A stretch of DNA of 64,000 nt from an uncultured Clostridia bacterium (GTDB lineage Bacteria; Bacillota; Clostridia; TANB77; CAG-465), in assembly GCA_948562205.1 (NCBI GenBank), contig CAOYAN010000009.1:187-64186 (forward strand), written 5' to 3'. Of the stretch, positions 20,456 through 49,753 are shown one piece after another (within the stretch, counting starts at the first letter, position 1; every line of letters starts with the position of its first letter). The notes beneath the pieces are model-generated. The model saw nothing but the letters and a program-made list of their open reading frames with translations. It ran no database searches and had not been told where the DNA came from. Made by a program: the position numbers and the translations under genes.

Positions 20456-21301
20456 ATGAAAGTAAAAGAAATAACTGTAAAAGATTATCTAACAAAATCT
20501 AATTTACCAACTATAGATTATGTTATTAATCCATATGTTGGTTGTCCACATGGATGTAAATATTGTTATGCAAGTTTTATGAAAAGGTTTACTGGACATG
20601 ATGAAGAATGGGGAACTTTTATAGATATAAAAAGATGTGATAAAAAAATTGATGTAAAAAAGTTAGAAAATAAAAGTCTTTTTATATCTTCTGTTACAGA
20701 TTGTTATAATGAATATGAAGAAAAGTATGAGATTACAAGAGATATTTTAAAACAATTTATTGATGTTAATGTTGATATAACTATTTCTACAAAATCAAAA
20801 CTCATTTTAAGAGATTTAGATATTTTGAAAAAATTAAAAAAACTTACTGTATCTATGTCTATAAATACGTTAGATGAAAAATTTAGAAGTGATATGGACA
20901 GTGGTAGTAGTATAGAAGATAGATTAAATACTCTTAAGATATTACATGAAAATGGTATCTATGTTGTAATTTTCATGTCTCCTATATTTCCATATGTAAC
21001 TAATTTTAAAAGTATTATAGAAAAAAGTAGAGACTTTGTAGATGAATATTATTTTGAAAACTTAAATCTTAGAGGAAGTTATAAAAATAAAATTCTAAAT
21101 TACATATACAAAAATTATCCTACTATTTATAATGAATATATAAAAATATATTATAGAAATGATAAAAATTACTGGATAAATTTATCAAAAGAAATAGAAA
21201 AATACTGTTTTGATAATAATATAAAATATAGAAATTATTTCTATCATGAAAAATTAGTAAATAAGAAAAAAGCAAATAATGGAGGAAGTAGAAATGAATG
21301 A
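20456..21301 (+). CDS. radical SAM protein, SplB/DNA-photolyase-like
   Basis: [10 protein letters not shown] (CxxxCxxC); GGTGA RBS before the ATG at 20456; overlaps uvrA by 8 nt. Confidence 0.78.
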
Positions 21302-24134
21302 TAAATTAATTATTAAAAATGCAAAAGAGAACAATTTAAAAAATATTGATTTAGAAATACCAAGAGATAAACTTGTTGTATTTACTGGTCTTTCAGGTTC
21401 TGGCAAATCATCTCTTGCTTTCGATACTATTTATGCAGAAGGACAGAGAAGATATGTAGAATCTTTATCATCATATGCAAGACAATTTTTAGGACTTATG
21501 GAAAAGCCAGATGTAGAACTTATTGAAGGACTTTCACCAGCTATATCTATTGATCAAAAAACTACTTCTAAAAATCCTAGGTCTACAGTTGGAACAGTTA
21601 CAGAAATATATGATTATTTGAGACTTCTTTATGCAAGAGTTGGTGTTCCATATTGTCCAAATTGTGGAAAAAGAATTAAAAAACAAACAATAGATGAAAT
21701 AGTAGATCAAATACTAGAATATGAAGAAGGTACTAAAATACTTGTAATGGCACCAGTAATTCGTGGCAAAAAGGGAGAATATGTAAAACTTTTTGAGCAA
21801 ACTTTAAAGGATGGCTTTATAAGAGTTAGAGTGGACTCAGAAGTGTATGATTTATCTGATGGAATTCCAGAGCTTGATAAACAAAAAAAGCATAATATTG
21901 AAATAATTGTAGACAGACTTGTTGTATCAAGCAATATTAGGCAAAGACTTGCAGATTCAGTAGAGCTTGCATCAAATCATGCAAATAATCTAGTACTTGT
22001 AGCAAAAGTTGGAGCAGATGAGCAACTATTTAGTCAAAATTATGCATGCCCTGATTGTGGAATAAATATAGAAGAGTTAACACCTAGAATGTTTTCATTT
22101 AATAGCCCTTTTGGTGCATGTCCTGATTGTACTGGACTTGGAGAACTTTTAAAAATAGATGTTGATAAAATTATGCCAGATAAAGAAAAAAAATTAAATG
22201 ATTATATGGCTATTAGGGGATGGTCTGGCGCAGGTAGTATTGTAGATACTATAAGTAATATGTATATAACTGGTCTATGTAAGCATTATGGAATTGATCC
22301 AAATACAAAATTAAAAGATTTACCTAAAGATTTTATGAATGTATTACTTTATGGAAGTAATGGAGAAAAGATTAAATTTGAACATATAACTAAAACTTTA
22401 AAAAGAGACTTTGAGTCTGAGTTTGAGGGTGTTGTACATACTTTAGAGAGAAGATTTGCTGAAACAAAATCTGCGGGTATGAAGACTTATTATGAGCAAT
22501 TTATGAGTACAAGTCATTGTGATTTATGTGATGGAGCAAGACTTAAAAGAGAAGCTTTGTCAGTAAAAATTGGTGGTTTAAATATTCATGAGTTATGTAA
22601 TAGAAATGTTAAAGCTATAAAAGAGTTTATAAATCAAGTGTATGAAACTAAAATGTCACAAAAAAATAAAATGATTGCAGAACAAATTGTAAAAGAATTA
22701 AATAGTAGATTACAGTTTTTAATAGATGTTGGACTTTCATATTTAACACTTTCAAGAAGTGCAGGGACTTTGTCTGGTGGTGAGTCTCAAAGGATTAGAC
22801 TTGCAACACAAATAGGCTCAGGACTTACAGGAGTATTATACATATTAGATGAGCCAAGTATTGGACTTCATCAAAGAGATAATGAAAAACTACTTAATTC
22901 TCTTAAAAAAATGAGAGATTTAGGTAATACATTAATAGTGGTTGAGCATGACGAAGATACAATGAATGAGGCAGACTATATTGTGGACATTGGACCAGGA
23001 GCTGGTGTACATGGTGGAAATGTAGTATTTTCTGGTACTCCAAAAGAAATCCTTAATTGTGAAGAATCAATTACTGGTAAATATCTAAGTGGTAAATTAA
23101 AAATAGAGGTACCTAAAAAAAGAAGAAAAGCAGAAAATGGATATATAGAAGTAAAAGGTGCAAGAGAACATAATTTAAAAAATATAAATGTAAAATTTCC
23201 AATAGGACTATTTACTTGTGTTACAGGTGTATCTGGAAGTGGTAAGTCTACACTTGTAAATGAAATATTATACAAAACTCTTGCAGGAAAAATAAATCGT
23301 GCAATTACAAAACCTGGCAAGCATCAAAAAATACTTGGAATAGAAAATATTGATAAGGTTATAAATATTGATCAGTCTCCAATTGGTAGAACTCCTAGAT
23401 CAAATCCTGCTACATATACAGGAATGTTTGATGCAATAAGAGATATTTTTGCATCAACAAATGAAGCTAAACTTAGAGGTTATCAAAAGGGAAGATTTAG
23501 TTTTAATGTTCCAGGTGGTAGATGTGAGGCTTGTTCTGGTGATGGAATTATAAAAATTGAAATGCACTTTTTACCTGATGTATACGTTCCTTGTGAGATA
23601 TGTAAAGGAAAAAGATATGCAAGAGAGACTTTAGAAGTAAAATATAAGGGAAAGAGTATTAGCGATGTACTTGATATGACAGTAGAAGAGGGATTAGAGT
23701 TCTTTAAAAATATTCCTACAATTAAAAATAAATTACAAACACTTATGGATGTAGGACTTGGATATATTAAGCTTGGTCAACCATCTACAACTCTATCAGG
23801 TGGAGAAGCCCAAAGAATAAAACTTGCAACAGAGCTTTCTAAAAGGGCTACTGGTAAAACAGTATATATACTAGATGAGCCAACAACTGGACTACATATG
23901 GATGATGTAGCAAAGCTTATAAAAATACTTCAAAGACTAACTGATGCAAATAATACATTAGTTGTTATTGAACATAATTTAGATGTTATAAAATCGGCAG
24001 ATTATATTGTTGATTTAGGACCTGAGGGTGGAGATAATGGTGGTACAATTGTAGCTACTGGTACACCTGAAAAAATATCAAAATGTGAAGAAAGCTATAC
24101 TGGTAAATTCTTAAAAAAAGTATTAAATAAATAA
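21294..24134 (+). CDS. uvrA: excinuclease ABC subunit A
   Basis: Two ABC modules ([25 protein letters not shown] x2) and zinc-finger cysteines. Confidence 0.97.
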
Positions 24135-29692: not shown

Positions 29693-29893
29693 TTGAAAAT
29701 AGGAATAGATATATATCATACAATGGCAGATACATTTGACTATTTAATACCATATATAGCAGAATTTTTTGATGTAGATATAAAATATTTGAAAGATAAT
29801 AATATTTCATATAGTAATTTACCAAAGGAAATGAAAGAGCGAGAACTTGAATTTGTAAGAAAATATTATGATAAAGTTATATTCATAACATGA
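29693..29893 (+). pseudogene. possible truncated HAD/nucleotidase-like fragment
   Basis: The MKIGIDI.. N-terminus resembles HAD motif I, but the ORF stops after 66 aa; TTG start. Confidence 0.3.
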
Positions 29894-29955
29894 ATGGAGA
29901 AAAATTCACGAAAATTATAGAGAAAATAAAAATTTATTTTGAGAGGAGTAAAAAT

Positions 29956-30518
29956 ATGAAAAATATATTAATTATTGGTCCACCTAGGGTTGGCAAATCA
30001 ACTTTAGCATCACTTTTATGTAAAAAATATAACTTTAATTATATTAGTGGAGATAGTATTAGAAATGCCTTTATAAATATATATCCAGAACTAGGTTATT
30101 CTACAAAAAATACTATTGAAAAAATAGAATTTTGCAAATTTATAAGGTGGATAAGTGATGAAAATAATATTCATTTAAAAAGAAATATCTATTATGTAAT
30201 AGATTCAGCTGATATTTCTATTGAGAATGTAAAAAAGTTTTTAAAGATTTTTTGATTATTGGAATAGGTTGTAAAGATATTAGTCCAAATAAACAATTAG
30301 AAAATATAAAGGCTCATGACACTAAACTAGATTGGACATATGGATATAGTGATGAAGAATTATTAGAAATTATCAATACTACCATATCCAAAAGTAAATT
30401 ATTATATAATCAATGTAGTTTAAATAATATTCCATATTTTGATACTTCTATAGATAGAAATAAGACTTATAATGAAATTTATGAGTTTATAGAAAGAAGT
30501 GAAAATAATAATGAGTAA
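29956..30518 (+). pseudogene. P-loop NTPase/kinase-like gene split by a frameshift at a T6 run
   Basis: Walker A GPPRVGKST; ORF 29890-30255 and ORF 30252-30518 fuse if one T is added at 30246-30251. Confidence 0.55.
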
Positions 30519-31358: not shown

Positions 31359-32150
31359 ATGAATATTTATGTAGAGTTAAATAAAATAATAGATTATATA
31401 GAAGAAAATTTAGAAAATAAAATAGATTATGGTAAGCTTGCAAACATGATAGGTGTAAATGAATATACATTCCAAAAAATATTTTCACTTATTGCAGGTA
31501 TTTCTATATCAGAATATATTAGAAATAGAAGAATGTCAAATTCTGGACAAGATATATTACTTTCAAATTGTAAGGTTATTGATATAGCTTTAAAATATCA
31601 ATATAATAATGCTACTTCTTTTTCTAGAGCGTTTGAAAAGTTTCATGGTATAAAGCCAAGTGAGGTAAGAAAAAGACAAAATAATTTGAAACTTTATTCC
31701 AAACTACATTTTAATGAAATATGTGATAGTAGTAAAAATATAAATTATGATATTGTTGAAATTGATAGTATGACTTTATATGGTAATTATGTAATTACAA
31801 CAAATGAAAAAGTAGGAAGAGATGCACCAAACTTTTATAAAAAGATGTCTAAAATATATGGTGAGCCAAAATATGGTATGGTAGAATACTATGCAAAAGA
31901 TAGAATTAGAGTAAAATCATATTGGATATTATATGATGAAAATAAAAAAGGATTAATAAAAATTAAAATTCCAAAAAGTAGATGGATATTAATTAGAATA
32001 CTATCACAAGAGGCAAAAGATATTCAAGAAGCATCTACAACATTTTATAATAATTTTCTACCAAGTTGTAAGTATAATTTTAGGGATTTACCTGAGATAG
32101 AATATTATCATGATGATATAACAGATTTTTTAATTCCAATAGAGGACTGA
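31359..32150 (+). CDS. AraC-family regulator with a GyrI-like effector domain
   Basis: HTH_18-like N-terminus (SFSRAFEKFHGIKPSE) and a GyrI-like C-terminal half. Confidence 0.85.
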   Translation: MNIYVELNKIIDYIEENLENKIDYGKLANMIGVNEYTFQKIFSLIAGISISEYIRNRRMSNSGQDILLSNCKVIDIALKYQYNNATSFSRAFEKFHGIKPSEVRKRQNNLKLYSKLHFNEICDSSKNINYDIVEIDSMTLYGNYVITTNEKVGRDAPNFYKKMSKIYGEPKYGMVEYYAKDRIRVKSYWILYDENKKGLIKIKIPKSRWILIRILSQEAKDIQEASTTFYNNFLPSCKYNFRDLPEIEYYHDDITDFLIPIED

Positions 32151-32180
32151 CTTTTTTTGTAATGAAAAAGTCAGTTTTTA
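32147..32180 (+). terminator. intrinsic terminator after the AraC gene
   Basis: CTGACTTTTT pairs with AAAAAGTCAG, then TTTTTA. Confidence 0.6.
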
Positions 32181-32227
32181 TACGTATAAATTTGATATAA
32201 TATTTATAATTTAAAATGGTGATTGAA

Positions 32228-34114
32228 ATGAATAAAAATGTTTTTGAAATATATCTTACTTCACCATATGTAAGAGGTGAAGAGTGGTTAAGATTTATAT
32301 ACAAAATATCAAAAATAAATGGAATATTTAGATACTGGAATTTATGGATATGTTTTGAGAAAAGTTATATAAAATATTATATAGAAACAGATAGAATACT
32401 TCCACCAATAGTAGGAGAGATAGGACAGTTTCTAATAAAGAGGACAGATATTTCTCTAAGAAGCAAAACATCACTTAGTATGCCATATGTATTAACTAAA
32501 AATTATAAAACACTACTTGATTTATACGATAGATTTGATGCTAAAAACTCACAAAAAGTAAAAAGTGTAAAAATTACTTTTTTTCCATATAAATGTGATA
32601 ACTATTTATCAACTACTCATTTATATTTAGAAGATGATTTTGGTAATGTTATAGATAAAAAAGTTTTTTTAAATAGTGAAATATATAATTTTATAAGTCT
32701 TGATTTTAGTACACATATAAGATTTTTATATAGTAAAAATGAAGCAAAGTATTTAAATCCAAAAAAGATAATAAATTTACTTAGTAGTGATAAAAATAAT
32801 GCAATACTTAGAGCTGATGTTTTTCCATATTTGCAAGATGAACTTTATCTAAATTACACAAATTATGATTTTGCTACTCATTCTCTAGTAGTGGGGGCTA
32901 GTGGCACTGGGAAGACTAAACTTATTAGCTCTATGATTAAGAATATGTCATATAATACTCAAAATAAGTTAAATTATAAAATAGTCGTAATTGATCCACA
33001 TGACTCAATAAAAGAAGATATTGGTGGTCTAGAGGAGAGTTGTGTGATAGATTTTAAGACTAGTGATAAGAGTGTAAATTTATTTGTAAATTCTACGTCT
33101 GATATACTTGCAACAACAGAGTCTATAATTTCAATACTTAAAAATATAATCGCAGATAGATATAATTCAAAGCTTGAAAGAGTGCTTAGATATAGTATTC
33201 ATTTGTTACTAGAAAACAAAGAATTTAGTCTTGTAACTTTAAGGAAATTACTTACTGAGATAGAGTATAGAAATAAAGTTATAAGAGAGGTTGAAGATTT
33301 TATTGCACCTAATGTAATAGAGTTTTTTAGAGTAGATTTTAGTGAGCTTAAAAATAAATCATATCAAGAAGCTATTTCACCTATAATCTCTTTTATAGAT
33401 GAAATGGAAATGTTACCTGCTCTAAATTCTACTGATGGAATAAGTACTATTGAAGATAAAATAAGAAAAAATTTTGTGACAATTTTATCTCTTGATCAAA
33501 TGAGTCTAGGATTAAATATTACTAAGACTATAGCAGGATTTGCAATGCAACAACTTTTACAACTAGTTCAGTCACATAGTTTTTATGAACATATTATATT
33601 AGTTGTAGATGAGGTTGCCGTAATTGAAAATCCAATACTTAATAGATTTTTAGCAGAGGCTAGAAAGTATAATTTATCTTTAATTTTAGCTAGTCAATAT
33701 TTTGAACAGATAAGTGAAGAACTTCAAAAATCTATTTTTACTAATGTAATAAATTATTTTATATTTAGAATTTCTAGAATGGATGCTATAAAACTTGAGA
33801 GAAATATACAAATGGAGCTTGCAGTAAACGATACTACTGCTATGAGAGTTAAGATGTTTTCAGAGTTAAATAATAGAGAATGCATTGTAAGGATTGGTAG
33901 TGGTGGTAAGATGTTTTCTGCTTTTAAAGGAAAAACACTAGATTTTATACCTGTTCCATATATAGAAAAAGATATAGTAGAAAAAAAGTTTAAAGAAAAC
34001 AAAAATATAGAAAAAAAGAAATCTTTTAGTATAAATACAAATAGTTCTCTAAAAGATATAATGTCTAAACAATCTACATCAAGAAAGAAGGTGAATTTCA
34101 TAAATGAAGGATAA
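32228..34114 (+). CDS. FtsK/HerA-superfamily (DUF87-like) P-loop ATPase with an unknown 220-aa N-terminal domain
   Basis: HSLVVGASGTGKT, VVIDPHDS, ILVVDE, LILASQ; GGTGA RBS before the ATG at 32228. Confidence 0.75.
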   Translation: MNKNVFEIYLTSPYVRGEEWLRFIYKISKINGIFRYWNLWICFEKSYIKYYIETDRILPPIVGEIGQFLIKRTDISLRSKTSLSMPYVLTKNYKTLLDLYDRFDAKNSQKVKSVKITFFPYKCDNYLSTTHLYLEDDFGNVIDKKVFLNSEIYNFISLDFSTHIRFLYSKNEAKYLNPKKIINLLSSDKNNAILRADVFPYLQDELYLNYTNYDFATHSLVVGASGTGKTKLISSMIKNMSYNTQNKLNYKIVVIDPHDSIKEDIGGLEESCVIDFKTSDKSVNLFVNSTSDILATTESIISILKNIIADRYNSKLERVLRYSIHLLLENKEFSLVTLRKLLTEIEYRNKVIREVEDFIAPNVIEFFRVDFSELKNKSYQEAISPIISFIDEMEMLPALNSTDGISTIEDKIRKNFVTILSLDQMSLGLNITKTIAGFAMQQLLQLVQSHSFYEHIILVVDEVAVIENPILNRFLAEARKYNLSLILASQYFEQISEELQKSIFTNVINYFIFRISRMDAIKLERNIQMELAVNDTTAMRVKMFSELNNRECIVRIGSGGKMFSAFKGKTLDFIPVPYIEKDIVEKKFKENKNIEKKKSFSINTNSSLKDIMSKQSTSRKKVNFINEG

Positions 34115-34817
34115 GGAATGCATGCAAGTGCTAGATGATATATTTATGGAAATATTTAGTAAGAAGTGTACTTTAAATTTAGATCAAGTATTATCTGAAT
34201 TTGCTTTTGATGTAAGGCTTCCAAATAAAGTAATAGATGCAGTGGACTCAAAGGATACATGGGCATCATCTATTAATTCAAATAAATATATAAGTCAAAC
34301 TAATATGGAAAAATATGATGAGTATAAAGGTTGGATGAGAGAAAAAGAAGAAATATCTTCACTAGACGATATTTTAAATCTTTGGAATGTAATAAATTAT
34401 ACTACTACAGAAAGAGTTTATGATAGTGATAATGTATCTAAAAGTGACACTATTTATGGCTGTGAGAATGTGTATAGGAGTCAAGACTGTAGAAGATGTA
34501 AAAATGTAGTATTTTCTGATGGTTGTGCAAATTCTGAATATATTCTTGCGTGTCAAAGAAGTGCCAATTTAAATTATTGTATTAAAGTAGATGATTCTTC
34601 TGATTGTTCTAATTGCTATAGTGTTGTGTGTGCAGGAAAAATTAGTAATTCTTTTTTTATACAAGATGCAAATTCTCTACATGAATGTATGTTTTGTTCA
34701 CATATTTCAAATCGCAGATATTGTATAGCAAATATGCAATTTGAAAAAGATGAGTACATGGAAATAAAAGAACAAGTTATAAAATGGTTAATAGAACAGT
34801 TTAAAAATAATGAATAG
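34104..34817 (+). CDS. Cys-rich protein with a roughly 12-residue periodic C-terminal half, unknown family
   Basis: Overlaps the ATPase gene by 11 nt; 14 Cys within about 95 aa, including three CxxC. Confidence 0.6.
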   Translation: MKDKECMQVLDDIFMEIFSKKCTLNLDQVLSEFAFDVRLPNKVIDAVDSKDTWASSINSNKYISQTNMEKYDEYKGWMREKEEISSLDDILNLWNVINYTTTERVYDSDNVSKSDTIYGCENVYRSQDCRRCKNVVFSDGCANSEYILACQRSANLNYCIKVDDSSDCSNCYSVVCAGKISNSFFIQDANSLHECMFCSHISNRRYCIANMQFEKDEYMEIKEQVIKWLIEQFKNNE

Positions 34818-35130: not shown

Positions 35131-35149
35131 ACACACACACACACACACA
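35131..35149. repeat. (AC)9 dinucleotide microsatellite
   Basis: ACACACACACACACACACA read directly. Confidence 0.95.
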
Positions 35150-35367
35150 ACTAAGTTTTAAAAACACAAGAAAATATGAAATAACAAGGGGAGATTCTGC
35201 CTTAAAATATATAGACTGATACTAGATAATGGTACCAGTTATTTTTGCGTGTAAAAACAAGTACAATAGGTCATGTTAACAAGTATAATAAGTCATTCAA
35301 TATTTTTAAAAAATAGTATATTATATAAAAATAGGAGAAAAATAAAGAATAGGAGGCAAATAGATAT

Positions 35368-40974: not shown

Positions 40975-42495
40975 ATGAAAAAATTAGCTTTAAATTGTGG
41001 TATTACCCTAACAGTGCTTATGATTACAATAGTTATAATGGTAATACTTTCATCTACAATAATTATAAATGTTGGAAGTGCTATAACAGATACAAGAAAA
41101 ACTACTTTTGCAAGTGATTTGAAAGTAGTAGAAGATGCAGTATCTGTTTATTATATACAAAATGGTAAATTTCCATCAGATGAGGGAGTAATGTCAGAAA
41201 AAGAGATACTTACCTTATCTGGTAGTAGTAATATAAATTATTTAAGAGAAGAATTTGTATTAAATGGCGATGATAATGAAAATTTAGATATGGGATCTTT
41301 TTATAAAATAGATTTATCTAAATTAGATATTGAAAATTCAAGTAAGGGATTGGGAGAAGGAAATGATGTATATGTTGCATCTTCTAATTCACTTAAAGTA
41401 TACTATCTTGCTGGAATAAGTGCAGATAATACAAAATATTTTTCTCTTGTAAGACTTACAAATCTAAATCGTATAGAAGATAGTGTGAGTCCTAATAATG
41501 ATGAAAATGTAGAAGTTAAAACTGTATCAGGTGTTACTGTAAAAAAACAAATTAGAACATGGACAAATGATGCTAAAATTTTAATACAATCAAATATTGC
41601 AAGTGATGAGAGTATGTATCTATCTATTGCAGGAGGAGATAAAAAAAGAATTGAGACTGCCCTTGGGTATAATACACTATCTTTTGGAAGTTTAGAAGAT
41701 ATAAAAAACAGAAAAGCAAATTTAAAGGCAGATATTTTATCAAGTGATATAGAGTATTTTAATGGTCTTCCTCAAAGTGATAAGTATATATCAATTATAA
41801 AAGAAAAAAGTGGTGAAACAGTATCAAATGTAAAAATAGATTTATCAAATTATGAAAATAATCCACCTATAATTTCTAATATTTTAAGTAGAGAGATAGA
41901 TGATGTAAATATTATTGAATTTAATGTAGAAGACAGTATTAGTGGAATTAATAATGTATATTATGAGTATTTAGAATGCTATAATGATAAAATGGAGAAG
42001 AAAAGTTACTTTATAGATGTATATGACTATGATTTCTCATATATGAGAACAAGGGCTAAAAAAACTAATATATCAGATAATGGAGTATATCAAATAAAAG
42101 TTCCTAAAAATGTTACTAAAATACAAATAACAGCAGTAGATAACGCAGGAAATTTTGTTAGTGTAAAAAGTGATGTTACAAATGATATATATGCTACAGT
42201 TTTAGGTAAAAATATTTCAAATAAAAATGTTAGTTTAAAACTTGCTATATTATCAAATAAAGAAGTAGAGAGCGTTAAGACATATATTAGTACAAACGGT
42301 GTTGACTTTGAAGATGAAAAAAATATAGAACTTTTAAATGAGGATGATAAAATTATTGGAAATGTATTATATAGTAATGTTTTAGTAATTAAAGAAGATA
42401 TATATGTAAAAATAGTAGTAAAAAGTAGTGATATGTCAGAATATATAAGGATTGTTAATTTAAAAGATATAGAAAGTATTGAAGATATAAGTTAA
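40975..42495 (+). CDS. secreted/anchored protein with a prepilin-like N-terminus and an Ig-like (..TAVDNAGN..) region
   Basis: MKKLALNCG|ITLTVLMITIVIMVIL resembles a class III signal peptide but lacks Glu at +5. Confidence 0.6.
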   Translation: MKKLALNCGITLTVLMITIVIMVILSSTIIINVGSAITDTRKTTFASDLKVVEDAVSVYYIQNGKFPSDEGVMSEKEILTLSGSSNINYLREEFVLNGDDNENLDMGSFYKIDLSKLDIENSSKGLGEGNDVYVASSNSLKVYYLAGISADNTKYFSLVRLTNLNRIEDSVSPNNDENVEVKTVSGVTVKKQIRTWTNDAKILIQSNIASDESMYLSIAGGDKKRIETALGYNTLSFGSLEDIKNRKANLKADILSSDIEYFNGLPQSDKYISIIKEKSGETVSNVKIDLSNYENNPPIISNILSREIDDVNIIEFNVEDSISGINNVYYEYLECYNDKMEKKSYFIDVYDYDFSYMRTRAKKTNISDNGVYQIKVPKNVTKIQITAVDNAGNFVSVKSDVTNDIYATVLGKNISNKNVSLKLAILSNKEVESVKTYISTNGVDFEDEKNIELLNEDDKIIGNVLYSNVLVIKEDIYVKIVVKSSDMSEYIRIVNLKDIESIEDIS

Positions 42496-48340: not shown

Positions 48341-48994
48341 ATGCAAGATAAATATAAGTTGACATTAGAACAAAATATATTTTTTGCTAAAAGAAATTTA
48401 GTAGATAATATATATGCTAACGCTAAAATGGAGGAAATTAATATAACTTTAGAGCAAATAAAAACAATACTAGATGGTGTAAGTGTTTCTAATTTAAGAA
48501 TAGATGAGATTGAATGTATTCTTAATTTAAGGGATGCTTGGAAATATATTATAACACATATAGAGGATGAATTTAATCTAGAATATATATGTAAAATAAA
48601 TTCTTTAGTAGCAAGAAATGAAAGTCTAAAATGGGGAGTTTTAAGAACTGGTAAAGTTGAAATAACTGGTACAAAGTATATCCCATCAATTCCAAAGAAA
48701 GATAAAGTATTAGAAGAAATAAGAAATATATTAAAAATAAAAAATACTACTGAAAAAGCAATAGAATATATGTTATATGGAATGAGAAATCAATTATTTT
48801 GGGATGGAAATAAAAGAACTAGTACAATATGTGCTAATAAGATTATGATACAAAATGGAGCTGGAATTATTAAAGTATCAGAAGAAAATTTGGAGGAATT
48901 TAATACCTTACTTAAAGAGTTTTATGATACAAATGAAAAAGAGAAAATAAAATCATTTATATATGAAAAGTGCATAGATGGTATTTCATTTTAA
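48341..48994 (+). CDS. Fic/Doc-family protein with a degenerate active-site motif
   Basis: QLFWDGNKRTSTICAN aligns to HxFx(D/E)GN(G/K)RxxR, with His replaced by Gln. Confidence 0.65.
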   Translation: MQDKYKLTLEQNIFFAKRNLVDNIYANAKMEEINITLEQIKTILDGVSVSNLRIDEIECILNLRDAWKYIITHIEDEFNLEYICKINSLVARNESLKWGVLRTGKVEITGTKYIPSIPKKDKVLEEIRNILKIKNTTEKAIEYMLYGMRNQLFWDGNKRTSTICANKIMIQNGAGIIKVSEENLEEFNTLLKEFYDTNEKEKIKSFIYEKCIDGISF

Positions 48995-49102: not shown

Positions 49103-49218
49103 TAAAAAGTTAGAATACCCTTGCTATAGTAGGGAATTAAAAAAGTAGGAATATCCTTGCCAAAGTAGGAAATTAAAAAAGTAGGAATATCCTTGCCAAA
49201 GTAGGAAATTAAAAAAGT
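49103..49218 (+). ncRNA. ToxI/antiQ-like type III antitoxin RNA: 36-nt tandem repeats (about 3.2 units)
   Basis: 49139-49174 and 49175-49210 are identical (AAAAAAGTAGGAATATCCTTGCCAAAGTAGGAAATT); 49103-49138 is a diverged copy; an 8-nt partial unit follows. Confidence 0.75.
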
Positions 49219-49255
49219 GATATGGCAATTTTCGAATTGCCATATCTTTTGTTTT
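49219..49255 (+). terminator. intrinsic terminator between the repeat RNA and the toxin gene
   Basis: GATATGGCAATT-TTCG-AATTGCCATATC, then TTTTGTTTT. Confidence 0.75.
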
Positions 49256-49267
49256 AAGGAGAAATAG

Positions 49268-49753
49268 ATGAAAAATTTAAAAATATATTATATAAGTGAA
49301 AGCTATGTTAATTATTTAAGGCAATTTGATAAAAATGTTGCATATAATAAAAATACTAAAAGACCATATATTGGAATTGTATATACATATAACAATTATA
49401 ATTATTTTTCACCATTAGCATCCCCTAAAGAAAAGCATAAAAATATAAATTCAAAAGCATTAGATATTTTTAAAATAAAAGATGGAGAACTTGGTGTTGT
49501 TAATATAAATAATATGATTCCAACTCCAATTGAAGAACTAACAGAAGTTTTACCATGCATAACTGATGAAAAATACAAAAAAATGTTAGAAGGGCAATTA
49601 ACTTTTTTAAATAACCATAAATCAGATTTGTTAAAAAAGGTAAATAATTTTCAAAATATGTATAGAAAAGGGCATTTAAATAAAAGTGTTTTAGATAGAT
49701 GTTGTAACTTTTTATTACTTGAAGAAAAATTTAAGGAGTATGTAAAAGAATAA
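49268..49753 (+). CDS. ToxN/AbiQ-family type III toxin endoribonuclease
   Basis: 161 aa; N-terminus MK..KIYYIS..YV.YL..FD..V, then YIGIV...F.PL.SPK.KH, and C-terminal CNF.LLEEK; preceded by repeats and a terminator. Confidence 0.82.
   Translation: MKNLKIYYISESYVNYLRQFDKNVAYNKNTKRPYIGIVYTYNNYNYFSPLASPKEKHKNINSKALDIFKIKDGELGVVNINNMIPTPIEELTEVLPCITDEKYKKMLEGQLTFLNNHKSDLLKKVNNFQNMYRKGHLNKSVLDRCCNFLLLEEKFKEYVKE

Follow-up and report, generated by a model that had tools for sequence, protein, structure and literature searches.

The gene pair and its locus

This report concerns two overlapping genes in a 64,000-nucleotide stretch of DNA (hereafter the window) from an uncultured Clostridia bacterium (contig CAOYAN010000009.1 of GenBank assembly GCA_948562205.1). 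The first encodes a P-loop ATPase of the FtsK/HerA/TrwB class and the second a Cys-rich protein of an unannotated family, which we call the partner. A preliminary description, made from the sequence alone, had proposed the two genes as an uncharacterized two-gene system and had framed them in terms of defense or conflict. Strict adjacency across species, closely correlated divergence and reverse look-ups support the first of these claims: the ATPase and its partner form a real, functionally linked module. The module is apparently undescribed; full-text searches of the literature found no description of the partner family or of the pair.

The features of the locus are collected in Table 1, in which coordinates are positions in the window; all genes of the module lie on the + strand. 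Both open reading frames (ORFs) were confirmed, as was the 11-nt overlap between the ATPase stop and the partner start, and AGAAGGTGA is found upstream of the partner ATG. For the ATPase, the ATG at 32228 is the likelier start, because a GGTGA Shine-Dalgarno sequence lies 5 nt upstream of it and most homologs are 627-628 aa long, which matches the 628-aa product. Residue numbers in this report are counted from the ATG at 32216 (the 632-aa version).

A 16-bp hairpin overlaps the AraC stop codon, with a folding energy of -17.7 kcal/mol and z = -6.26 (0 of 200 shuffled sequences were as stable). This agrees with the terminator previously assigned to the regulator gene, and a consensus terminator scan did not list it. 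Since the hairpin is strong and is followed by a T-run, the pair is probably transcribed apart from the regulator. The weak promoter once ascribed to the pair was not confirmed: the AT-rich upstream region holds 36 promoter-like hexamers against 39 expected in shuffled sequence. As such sites do not exceed the shuffle expectation, we do not count the extended -10 element TGATATAAT, readable by eye only, as evidence. No convincing terminator was found 3' of the partner gene.

Table 1. Features of the window discussed in the text, in order of position
Feature	Position	Strand	Evidence or content
UvrA gene	21279-24134		
Two short abutting ORFs, 121 aa then 88 aa	29890-30518		P-loop kinase-like matches (121-aa ORF)
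AraC-family regulator, GyrI-like/Cass2 effector-binding domain	31359-32150	+	Pfam HTH_18 4.7e-17, Cass2 1.5e-7, GyrI-like 3.6e-7
Hairpin with T-run, terminator-like, between regulator and pair	32142-32179	+	RNA folding
Extended -10-like element TGATATAAT, candidate promoter of ATPase gene	32193-32201	+	Read by eye
FtsK/HerA/TrwB-class P-loop ATPase	32228-34114 (628 aa); 632 aa from upstream ATG at 32216	+	Pfam, fold, motifs
Cys-rich partner, unannotated family, 237 aa	34104-34817	+	ORF, homologs, AF2
(CA)9 microsatellite	35133-35150		
Surface protein, 1,825 aa	35368-40845		Eight Cna_B repeats, C-terminal membrane anchor
506-aa protein	40975-42495		No Pfam domain
AddA-like protein, 1,252 aa	42512-46270		UvrD-helicase and PD-(D/E)XK nuclease
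Fic-domain gene	48341-48994		
Likely ToxIN-like type III toxin-antitoxin module	49104-49753		
36-nt tandem repeat	49104-49218		3.2 copies, 92% match
ToxN-family toxin gene	49268-49753		Pfam ToxN_toxin 3.5e-38

Linkage and co-evolution of the two genes

Searches with the partner returned 1,136 close homologs; none carries an annotation, and their lengths all lie within about 235-241 aa. When one genome was scanned for each species, 30 loci emerged, and in all 28 of those with upstream DNA the ATPase gene is found immediately upstream of the partner gene, often with an overlap of 4-11 nt. Reverse look-ups starting from ATPase homologs found the unannotated partner gene, of 235 or 236 aa, downstream; the two genes do co-occur across genomes, as the proposal of a two-gene system supposed. 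Their divergence is also matched, the pairwise identities of ATPase and partner being correlated at r = 0.96 (22 genomes, 231 pairs). The partner is the more conserved of the two in 99.6% of comparisons, with a mean identity of 60% versus 47%. The most conserved part of the module is the solenoid half of the partner (67%) and the least conserved is the N-terminal domain of the ATPase (37%).

At one locus (L020, 8678-10567, in a metagenome-assembled genome (MAG) labeled Saccharibacteria), a 629-aa ORF fuses the ATPase core in frame to the partner. It is without the N-domain and tail of the ATPase and without the first ~42 residues of the partner, and a separate 107-aa ORF holds a fragment of the ATPase N-domain. 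The fusion could be genuine, or else the locus may be decaying or mis-assembled; we give it little weight because the N-terminal part of the ATPase looks disrupted there.

The ATPase

All of the ATPase motifs that had been picked out from the sequence are present: HSLVVGASGTGKT at residues 222-234, VVIDPHDS at 257-264, ILVVDE at 461-466 and LILASQ at 489-494. The Walker A sequence GASGTGKT (227-234), the Walker B sequence VVDE (463-466) and the DPH motif are invariant across 58 homologs, as are several Arg and Gln residues. In Pfam, the matches to TrwB_AAD_bind (2.1e-9, residues 220-520) and DUF87 (4.8e-6) both exceed the gathering score; TraG-D_C is sub-threshold (19.6 bits against a cut-off of 22), and NCBIfam gave only far-sub-threshold matches (EccC, TraD and FtsK). 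The N-terminal ~200 aa, which could not be placed before, have no Pfam match either, all matches beginning at or after about residue 211.

An AF2 model built with the 58 homologs has a mean predicted local distance difference test (pLDDT) score of 74. It shows a beta-rich N-domain (~1-200), a RecA-like core (~205-580) and a disordered basic tail (586-632), which in bacterial ATPases is short and carries a conserved KDIM-x-KQS-x-SRKKV motif. An all-alpha insert, with helices at ~297-404, is predicted within the core between Walker A and Walker B. Foldseek returned 83 matches in the PDB at E <= 0.001, headed by the C-domain of DndH (7es4; 2.5e-11, template modeling score TMt 0.64) and TrwB (3e-11), with further matches to Cagbeta, DotL and HerA (E ~1e-10 to 1e-11). 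There is no transmembrane helix (the highest Kyte-Doolittle 19-residue window scores 1.23). By its sequence and its model, which have the defining features of the superfamily, the protein is a soluble FtsK/HerA-superfamily ATPase that looks active. It is nearest to the DndH, HerA and type IV coupling protein (T4CP) branches, without the membrane anchor or the gene neighborhood of a coupling protein.

The likeness to T4CPs (TrwB/VirD4, Cagbeta-CagZ and DotL) comprises the TrwB_AAD_bind match, the fold matches and the presence of an all-alpha domain within the nucleotide-binding domain. In Cagbeta-CagZ and DotL-IcmSW, a small adjacent protein is established to bind the all-alpha domain or the tail of the T4CP. 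Unlike T4CPs, the ATPase has no N-terminal membrane anchor, its N-domain being beta-rich and soluble in the model. VirB4, other type IV secretion system (T4SS), relaxase or conserved membrane-channel genes were found in none of the related contexts examined, and plasmids hold only relatives of 22% identity.

These differences bear on whether the ATPase could be the decayed remnant of a conjugative T4CP, followed by a fortuitous ORF. TrwB_AAD_bind above its gathering threshold, TraG-D_C just below its cut-off and TrwB as a top fold match would all suit such an origin. Over more than 1,000 homologs, however, both genes have stayed intact under purifying selection; their adjacency is strict and they co-evolve. 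Nor are the ATPase homologs embedded in T4SS clusters, the setting that the preliminary description had named as the mark of a remnant. Taken with the missing anchor and the distant plasmid relatives, this effectively refutes the idea.

In genomes of the candidate phyla radiation (CPR), 5,713 VirD4-like T4CP homologs have been counted, of which only 148 are near virB4, and the authors suggest that these homologs may be exapted for other functions (bioRxiv 10.1101/2025.01.22.634366). The ATPase family described here may correspond to such orphan homologs.

As for DndH and SspH, the C-domain of DndH is the single best fold match, yet no DndF/G, Ssp or Pbe partners accompany the pair, the PADLOC match to SspH is negligible (E 0.002) and the N-terminal domain of the ATPase is unrelated to anything annotated.

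The HerA-effector complexes (NurA-HerA, Sir2-HerA/Nezha and DUF4297-HerA) offer a parallel in layout: a two-gene operon, a ring ATPase with an extra N-terminal domain and a smaller partner that presumably mounts on the ring. Our ATPase has significant fold matches to HerA chains (8yhx, 8xau, 8uae, 8j4u and 8ziq), although the alignment is loose, with TM-scores of 0.36-0.42 and a root-mean-square deviation (rmsd) of 13-15 A. As regards the N-terminal HAS beta-barrel of HerA, the N-domain of our ATPase is beta-rich, and the full-length alignments with HerA are long but poor, as the rmsd indicates. The ATPase also differs from HerA in its TrwB-like all-alpha insert. Its partner, a putative non-enzymatic beta-solenoid, is not a nuclease or NADase, and the pair sits in a core-like setting rather than a defense island. 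HerA in the strict sense has NurA, Sir2 or DUF4297 as its operon partner, whereas the partner here matches nothing in Pfam or PADLOC. Consistent with the preliminary description, no NurA, Sir2, DUF4297, T4SS or relaxase genes are found near the pair in the window.

The partner protein

The AF2 model of the partner, built with 90 homologs, has a pLDDT of 83.8 and a predicted template modeling score (pTM) of 0.75, with residues 105-150 less confident. An N-terminal alpha/beta domain occupies residues ~1-100 and is followed by a Cys-rich beta-solenoid of short strands (~100-212), with a long helix at the C-terminus (215-234). From ~135 to 200, the model has one short strand per 10-12 residues. 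The periodicity of about 12 residues noticed earlier is real: over the 90 homologs, self-similarity at lag 12 has z = 6.9, with weaker peaks at lags 6, 18 and 24. The three CxxC motifs are likewise present (129-132, 168-171 and 195-198), but the earlier count of 14 Cys in about 95 aa needs correction, as the 88-residue stretch 120-207 holds 12 and the figure of 14 belongs to the whole protein. Neither the partner nor the ATPase has a transmembrane segment or a signal peptide.

The partner had been said to belong to no recognized family, and our searches bear this out. Single sequences and family profiles gave no match in Pfam, NCBIfam, PADLOC or PDB sequences, and PHROGs gave one marginal match (E 0.0098). 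In Foldseek searches of PDB and BFVD with the model, nothing was found at E <= 0.001; the best weak matches are left-handed beta-helix proteins (E 0.05-0.5, TM-score < 0.25). We conclude that the partner belongs to no described family, and it may represent a new fold.

Narrow or hexapeptide beta-helix proteins, such as the left-handed beta-helix (LbH) acyltransferases and gamma-carbonic anhydrases, provide the nearest comparison. They share the short, regular strands, the 6- or 12-residue period and small residues (Cys, Ser and Asn) at fixed positions, and left-handed beta-helices are the sole weak fold matches. The beetle antifreeze protein, a Cys-rich solenoid with a 12-residue repeat, may also be likened to the partner. 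Against this, no fold match is significant and Pfam, Hexapep included, has no match to the partner at E <= 1. The partner is also cytoplasmic and coupled to an ATPase, and it has an N-terminal alpha/beta domain and a C-terminal helix of its own.

Conservation within the solenoid depends on how widely one looks. In the bacterial clade, about 10 Cys positions and His200 are conserved at 74-100%, roughly one per rung, while across the whole family the best Cys positions are shared by only 42-69% of modules. Only F197, I208, N210, Y218 and K222 are at least 78% conserved family-wide, and these look structural. We therefore read the partner as a non-enzymatic beta-solenoid scaffold.

The Cys content does raise the possibility of metal or sulfur handling, in which the solenoid would bind Zn, an Fe-S cluster or a thiophilic ligand along its Cys ladder, under the control of a ligand-sensing regulator, and the ATPase would load or remodel it. 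Cys is 3-4 times as frequent as is typical (the window protein has 14 among its 237 residues, and archaeal forms have a median of 21.5 in ~525 aa), the bacterial clade has its ladder of Cys and His200, and the second modules of archaeal proteins carry CxxCxxC(H)...CxxC. Sensors of the MerR and AraC/GyrI types adjoin the module, and a PALP enzyme (cysteine/threonine-synthase fold) stands beside the ATPase in several archaeal loci. The family as a whole fits this role poorly, however. The first modules of archaeal proteins and some paralogs at locus L117 have as few as 4 Cys, and the partner family matches neither ferredoxin, metallothionein nor other metal-binding Pfam families. In ferredoxin and zinc-ribbon proteins the Cys/His ligand set is invariant, whereas here this is so only within the bacterial clade. 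A narrow 12-residue solenoid, moreover, needs small interior residues (Cys, Ser and Ala) for packing alone. We consider this explanation improbable; metal binding is possible in some clades, and it does not define the family. A universal metal site was ruled out on the family-wide Cys conservation.

A role for the solenoid as a DNA mimic was also considered, as the window protein is acidic (isoelectric point, pI, 4.7). It was rejected as a general property, archaeal relatives having a median pI of 7.7.

Carriers, genomic setting and regulation

Two groups of bacterial carriers can be told apart, one of low GC content (24-29%) and one of 40-50% GC. The former are gut MAGs labeled Clostridia, Clostridium or Bacilli, among them one circular 1.5-Mb genome; the latter bear the submitter label Candidatus Saccharibacteria. 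In the window, the pair is surrounded by the genes for UvrA, a RumA-like methyltransferase, LigA, Mfd, PrsA and SpoU, and its GC content, both overall and at third codon positions (GC3), equals that of the host core genes UvrA, LigA and Mfd. A prevalent mouse-gut species has RadA-DisA-MutL-MiaA upstream and CCA-adding enzyme-AspRS-PFK downstream, and the mid-GC group has ThyA-AlkD-like-ABC1 kinase upstream and YggU-GNAT-UDG downstream. Other contexts include NUDIX and HtrA flanks, Ogt-HAD upstream with Tag downstream, and rpoBC nearby.

The setting of the pair is thus chromosomal, housekeeping and core-like rather than a defense island. The accessory island of decaying genes in which the pair had been placed comes down to, at most, two kinase-like ORFs (29890-30518), and the wider window is core chromosome. 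These two ORFs look like one frameshift-split gene and are the sole sign of decay.

An AraC/GyrI homolog lies directly upstream of the ATPase gene in most loci (cluster c1 in 21 of the loci L001-L034, and also at L113 and L122). In other lineages, the same place is taken by a regulator of the MerR, HTH_23, HTH_10 or Lrp/AsnC type. The AraC/GyrI protein is probably a dedicated regulator of the pair.

This setting is central to the question of anti-phage or anti-plasmid defense of the HerA-plus-effector type, in which the ring would sense or translocate invader DNA and the partner would be the effector or sensor. The two-gene layout and the HerA/DndH-like ATPase invite this view, and close solved assemblies include Sir2-HerA, DUF4297-HerA and DndH. 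The flanks of the triad of AraC, ATPase and partner genes vary between species of the low-GC clade, and a ToxIN module and a Fic gene are found ~14 kb downstream of the pair. Homologs of the partner are nevertheless absent from 50,697 phage records, 72,556 plasmids and IMG/VR, and the ATPase has no match in the phage records. We also took a census of the proteins encoded in the flanks, 123 of them in 17 contexts. Of the 138 Pfam families that it returned, none appeared in more than three contexts, and families of restriction, Cas, integrase or transposase proteins were not over-represented. The composition is native to the host. The partner has no conserved site of nuclease, NADase or protease type; it is highly conserved, more so than the ATPase, and the archaeal paralog arrays are ancient rather than diversifying. 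The defense framing is thus unsupported by context, composition or conservation, and we regard defense as an unlikely function of the pair.

PADLOC searches need a separate comment. In PADLOC-DB v2 the partner has 0 matches, and the ATPase matches mad8 (1.9e-16), HerA (weakly) and SspH through its P-loop region only. The mad8 match was dropped as a lead to defense, as the UvrA of this same genome matches the mad8 model (PDLC04140) more strongly, at 1.5e-42; the mad8 match alone therefore does not indicate a MADS defense system. UvrA also matches mad3, at 4.5e-111. This cross-matching matters for PADLOC-style annotation of such genomes.

The wider family and its archaeal arrays

When 1.84 billion representatives were searched exhaustively, the partner family came to 451 clusters at 50% identity, none of them with a Pfam domain. 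Many of the clusters are proteins of 520-540 aa with two copies of the module, and one member is labeled Candidatus Micrarchaeota. In a scan of metagenomes we found 78 environmental loci with a mean GC content of 48%, in which 2-8 family genes form tandem, often overlapping arrays, typically with an ATPase gene at the array end. Counted as modules, the partners beside the ATPase number 2 to 13+ in archaeal loci. Neighboring genes suggest that the contigs with arrays are archaeal: they encode HTH_10 and Lrp/AsnC regulators, aconitase X and a member of the amino-acid-kinase family, the last two of which we take to be archaeal mevalonate-pathway genes. The bacterial and the array-linked archaeal ATPases align over their full length, N-domain included, with an hhalign probability of 99.9% (E 2e-35).

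Within the arrays, each paralog is 42-79% identical to its positional orthologs in other genomes and 31-42% identical to its array neighbors. It follows that each array is a long-established set of distinct subunits rather than a cassette that evolves quickly. To judge from their sequences, the distinct archaeal paralogs fit non-redundant subunits. In one MAG (L117), exactly six single-module paralogs accompany the ATPase and an HTH regulator.

The arrays also favor a protein-handling machine, in which the ATPase would be an assembly chaperone, an unfoldase or a coupling or secretion ATPase and the solenoids its clients or cargo. One ATPase beside an array of many paralogous, non-enzymatic proteins recalls EssC and VirD4, which are likewise encoded next to arrays of their own substrates, and many solenoid genes are found singly, as would be expected of dispersed substrates. 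The T4CP-like features (TrwB_AAD_bind and the sub-threshold TraG-D_C) and the all-alpha insert, comparable to the inserts through which Cagbeta and DotL bind substrates or regulators, would be at home in such a machine. So would the abundance in CPR of orphan VirD4-like T4CP homologs, which may be exapted (bioRxiv 10.1101/2025.01.22.634366). On the other side, the two proteins have neither transmembrane segments nor signal peptides, and the contexts hold no conserved membrane-channel gene, no VirB4 and no T4SS or type VII secretion system (T7SS) components. The bacterial version, moreover, has a single, very conserved partner and not a variable set of cargo. We rate protein handling as unlikely, on a par with defense.

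Two further features of the archaeal loci deserve mention. A pyridoxal phosphate (PLP)-dependent enzyme of the PALP fold (cysteine/threonine-synthase family), with a C-terminal extension of ~190 aa, flanks the ATPase in several of them (L047 14857-16347, L051 13289-14821, and three copies at L102: 10407-11879, 13972-15630 and 15627-17084). It could be functionally linked to the Cys- and Ser-rich solenoid proteins. The array-linked archaeal ATPases have low-complexity tails of 150-350 aa that are rich in Glu, Lys, Pro and Ala, for example at L062 15106-17865, L049 7617-10301 and L060 15145-17535.

A proposed mechanism

Our best explanation, offered tentatively, is that the pair encodes a regulated, vertically inherited chromosomal complex of an ATPase ring and a solenoid adaptor, probably acting on DNA. 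The ATPase would be a soluble ring translocase of the FtsK/HerA/TrwB/DndH class, and its family-specific N-domain or conserved basic tail would dock the Cys-rich beta-solenoid partner. The solenoid, having no enzyme-like conserved site, would act as a ring-associated adaptor, that is, as a target-recognition or gating subunit. In the window bacterium a single partner type is available, presumably forming a homo-oligomer on the ring, while in archaeal relatives each ATPase has distinct partner modules, up to six or more, that diverged long ago. ATP hydrolysis would move a polymer through or along the ring, most likely DNA, since the ATPase is structurally closest to DNA translocases. The machine would be switched on by its ligand-sensing transcription factor and would serve a regulated, stress-responsive DNA transaction or a housekeeping task rather than phage defense. 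This adaptor or gating model seems to us the most economical because of the analogy with HerA-effector complexes and T4CP-adaptor pairs.

Several points weigh against this explanation. What we observed directly is the adjacency and co-evolution of the genes, the layout of domains, the intact catalytic motifs, the repeat, the phyletic spread and the neighboring regulators; by analogy we infer complex formation, and with it the physical interaction and activity of the pair, together with the hexameric state, the docking domain, the substrate and the physiological role. The choice of DNA follows from the structural relatives of the ATPase only, and among these T4CPs and EssC-type ATPases handle proteins as well. 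Almost every low-GC species has its own flanks around the triad, which would fit either heavy rearrangement or occasional movement of a cassette. DNA-repair genes (MutL/DisA/RadA, AlkD-like/UDG, Ogt/Tag and UvrB) occur near the pair in several contexts, yet no family does so in more than 3 of the 17. The number of modules per ATPase is 1, 2, 4, 6, 8, 10 or 13+, so that six is common but not fixed. Finally, in 41 complete archaeal loci a double-module gene stands without any ATPase gene, so it is evident that members of the solenoid family can function, or be encoded, independently of it.

Two more specific ideas were set aside in the light of these counts. A fixed 6:6 stoichiometry, attractive from L117, L047 and L051, was dropped given the range of 1 to 13+ modules, and the enrichment of DNA-repair neighbors is kept as a weak hint only, given the census.

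More broadly, we may be looking at an ancient ATPase-solenoid machine, seen here in its minimal form and found in gut Firmicutes with small genomes, Saccharibacteria-labeled MAGs and DPANN-like archaea, in the last of which each ATPase would be joined by about six or more distinct solenoid subunits. It would comprise a new family, probably with a new fold, would function unlike any characterized HerA/FtsK system and might explain some of the orphan T4CPs of CPR. We put the chances of this broader picture at a little under even.

Significance

Motors of the FtsK/HerA/TrwB superfamily play a central part in chromosome segregation, conjugation and DNA repair, and also in several defense complexes that were solved recently. 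The pairing of a ring ATPase with a partner is a known arrangement; the partner family is the new part. It comprises 451 clusters and thousands of sequences from bacteria and archaea, with no domain entry, structure or literature found, and it is tightly tied to one specific branch of these motors. If our explanation is correct, ring translocases would here be equipped in a new manner, by a non-enzymatic solenoid adaptor with up to six or more paralogs for each motor.

The carriers include organisms with reduced genomes: the circular 1.5-Mb low-GC MAG, the Saccharibacteria-labeled MAGs and the Micrarchaeota-labeled archaeon. Dispensable genes are scarce in reduced genomes, and the module is therefore probably important to the biology of its carriers. 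Automatic pipelines would label the ATPase as a 'T4SS coupling protein' or a 'HerA helicase', and neither label fits.

Other features of the window

Downstream of the pair, a (CA)9 microsatellite is located in the 550-nt intergenic region upstream of the gene for the large Cna_B surface protein, where it could act as a slipped-strand phase-variation switch. The 506-aa protein encoded directly after this adhesin begins with MKKLALNCGITLTVLMITIVIMVIL..., an N-terminus that resembles the hydrophobic segment of a type IV pilin or pseudopilin. Neither of these two genes lies beside the pair in any of the related loci. The AddA-like protein, which has no adjoining AddB-like gene, gave many PADLOC matches to GajB, reflecting only the shared UvrD helicase core. 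Further along, the Fic-domain gene stands just ahead of the likely ToxIN-like module, in which the 36-nt tandem repeat lies directly upstream of the ToxN gene.

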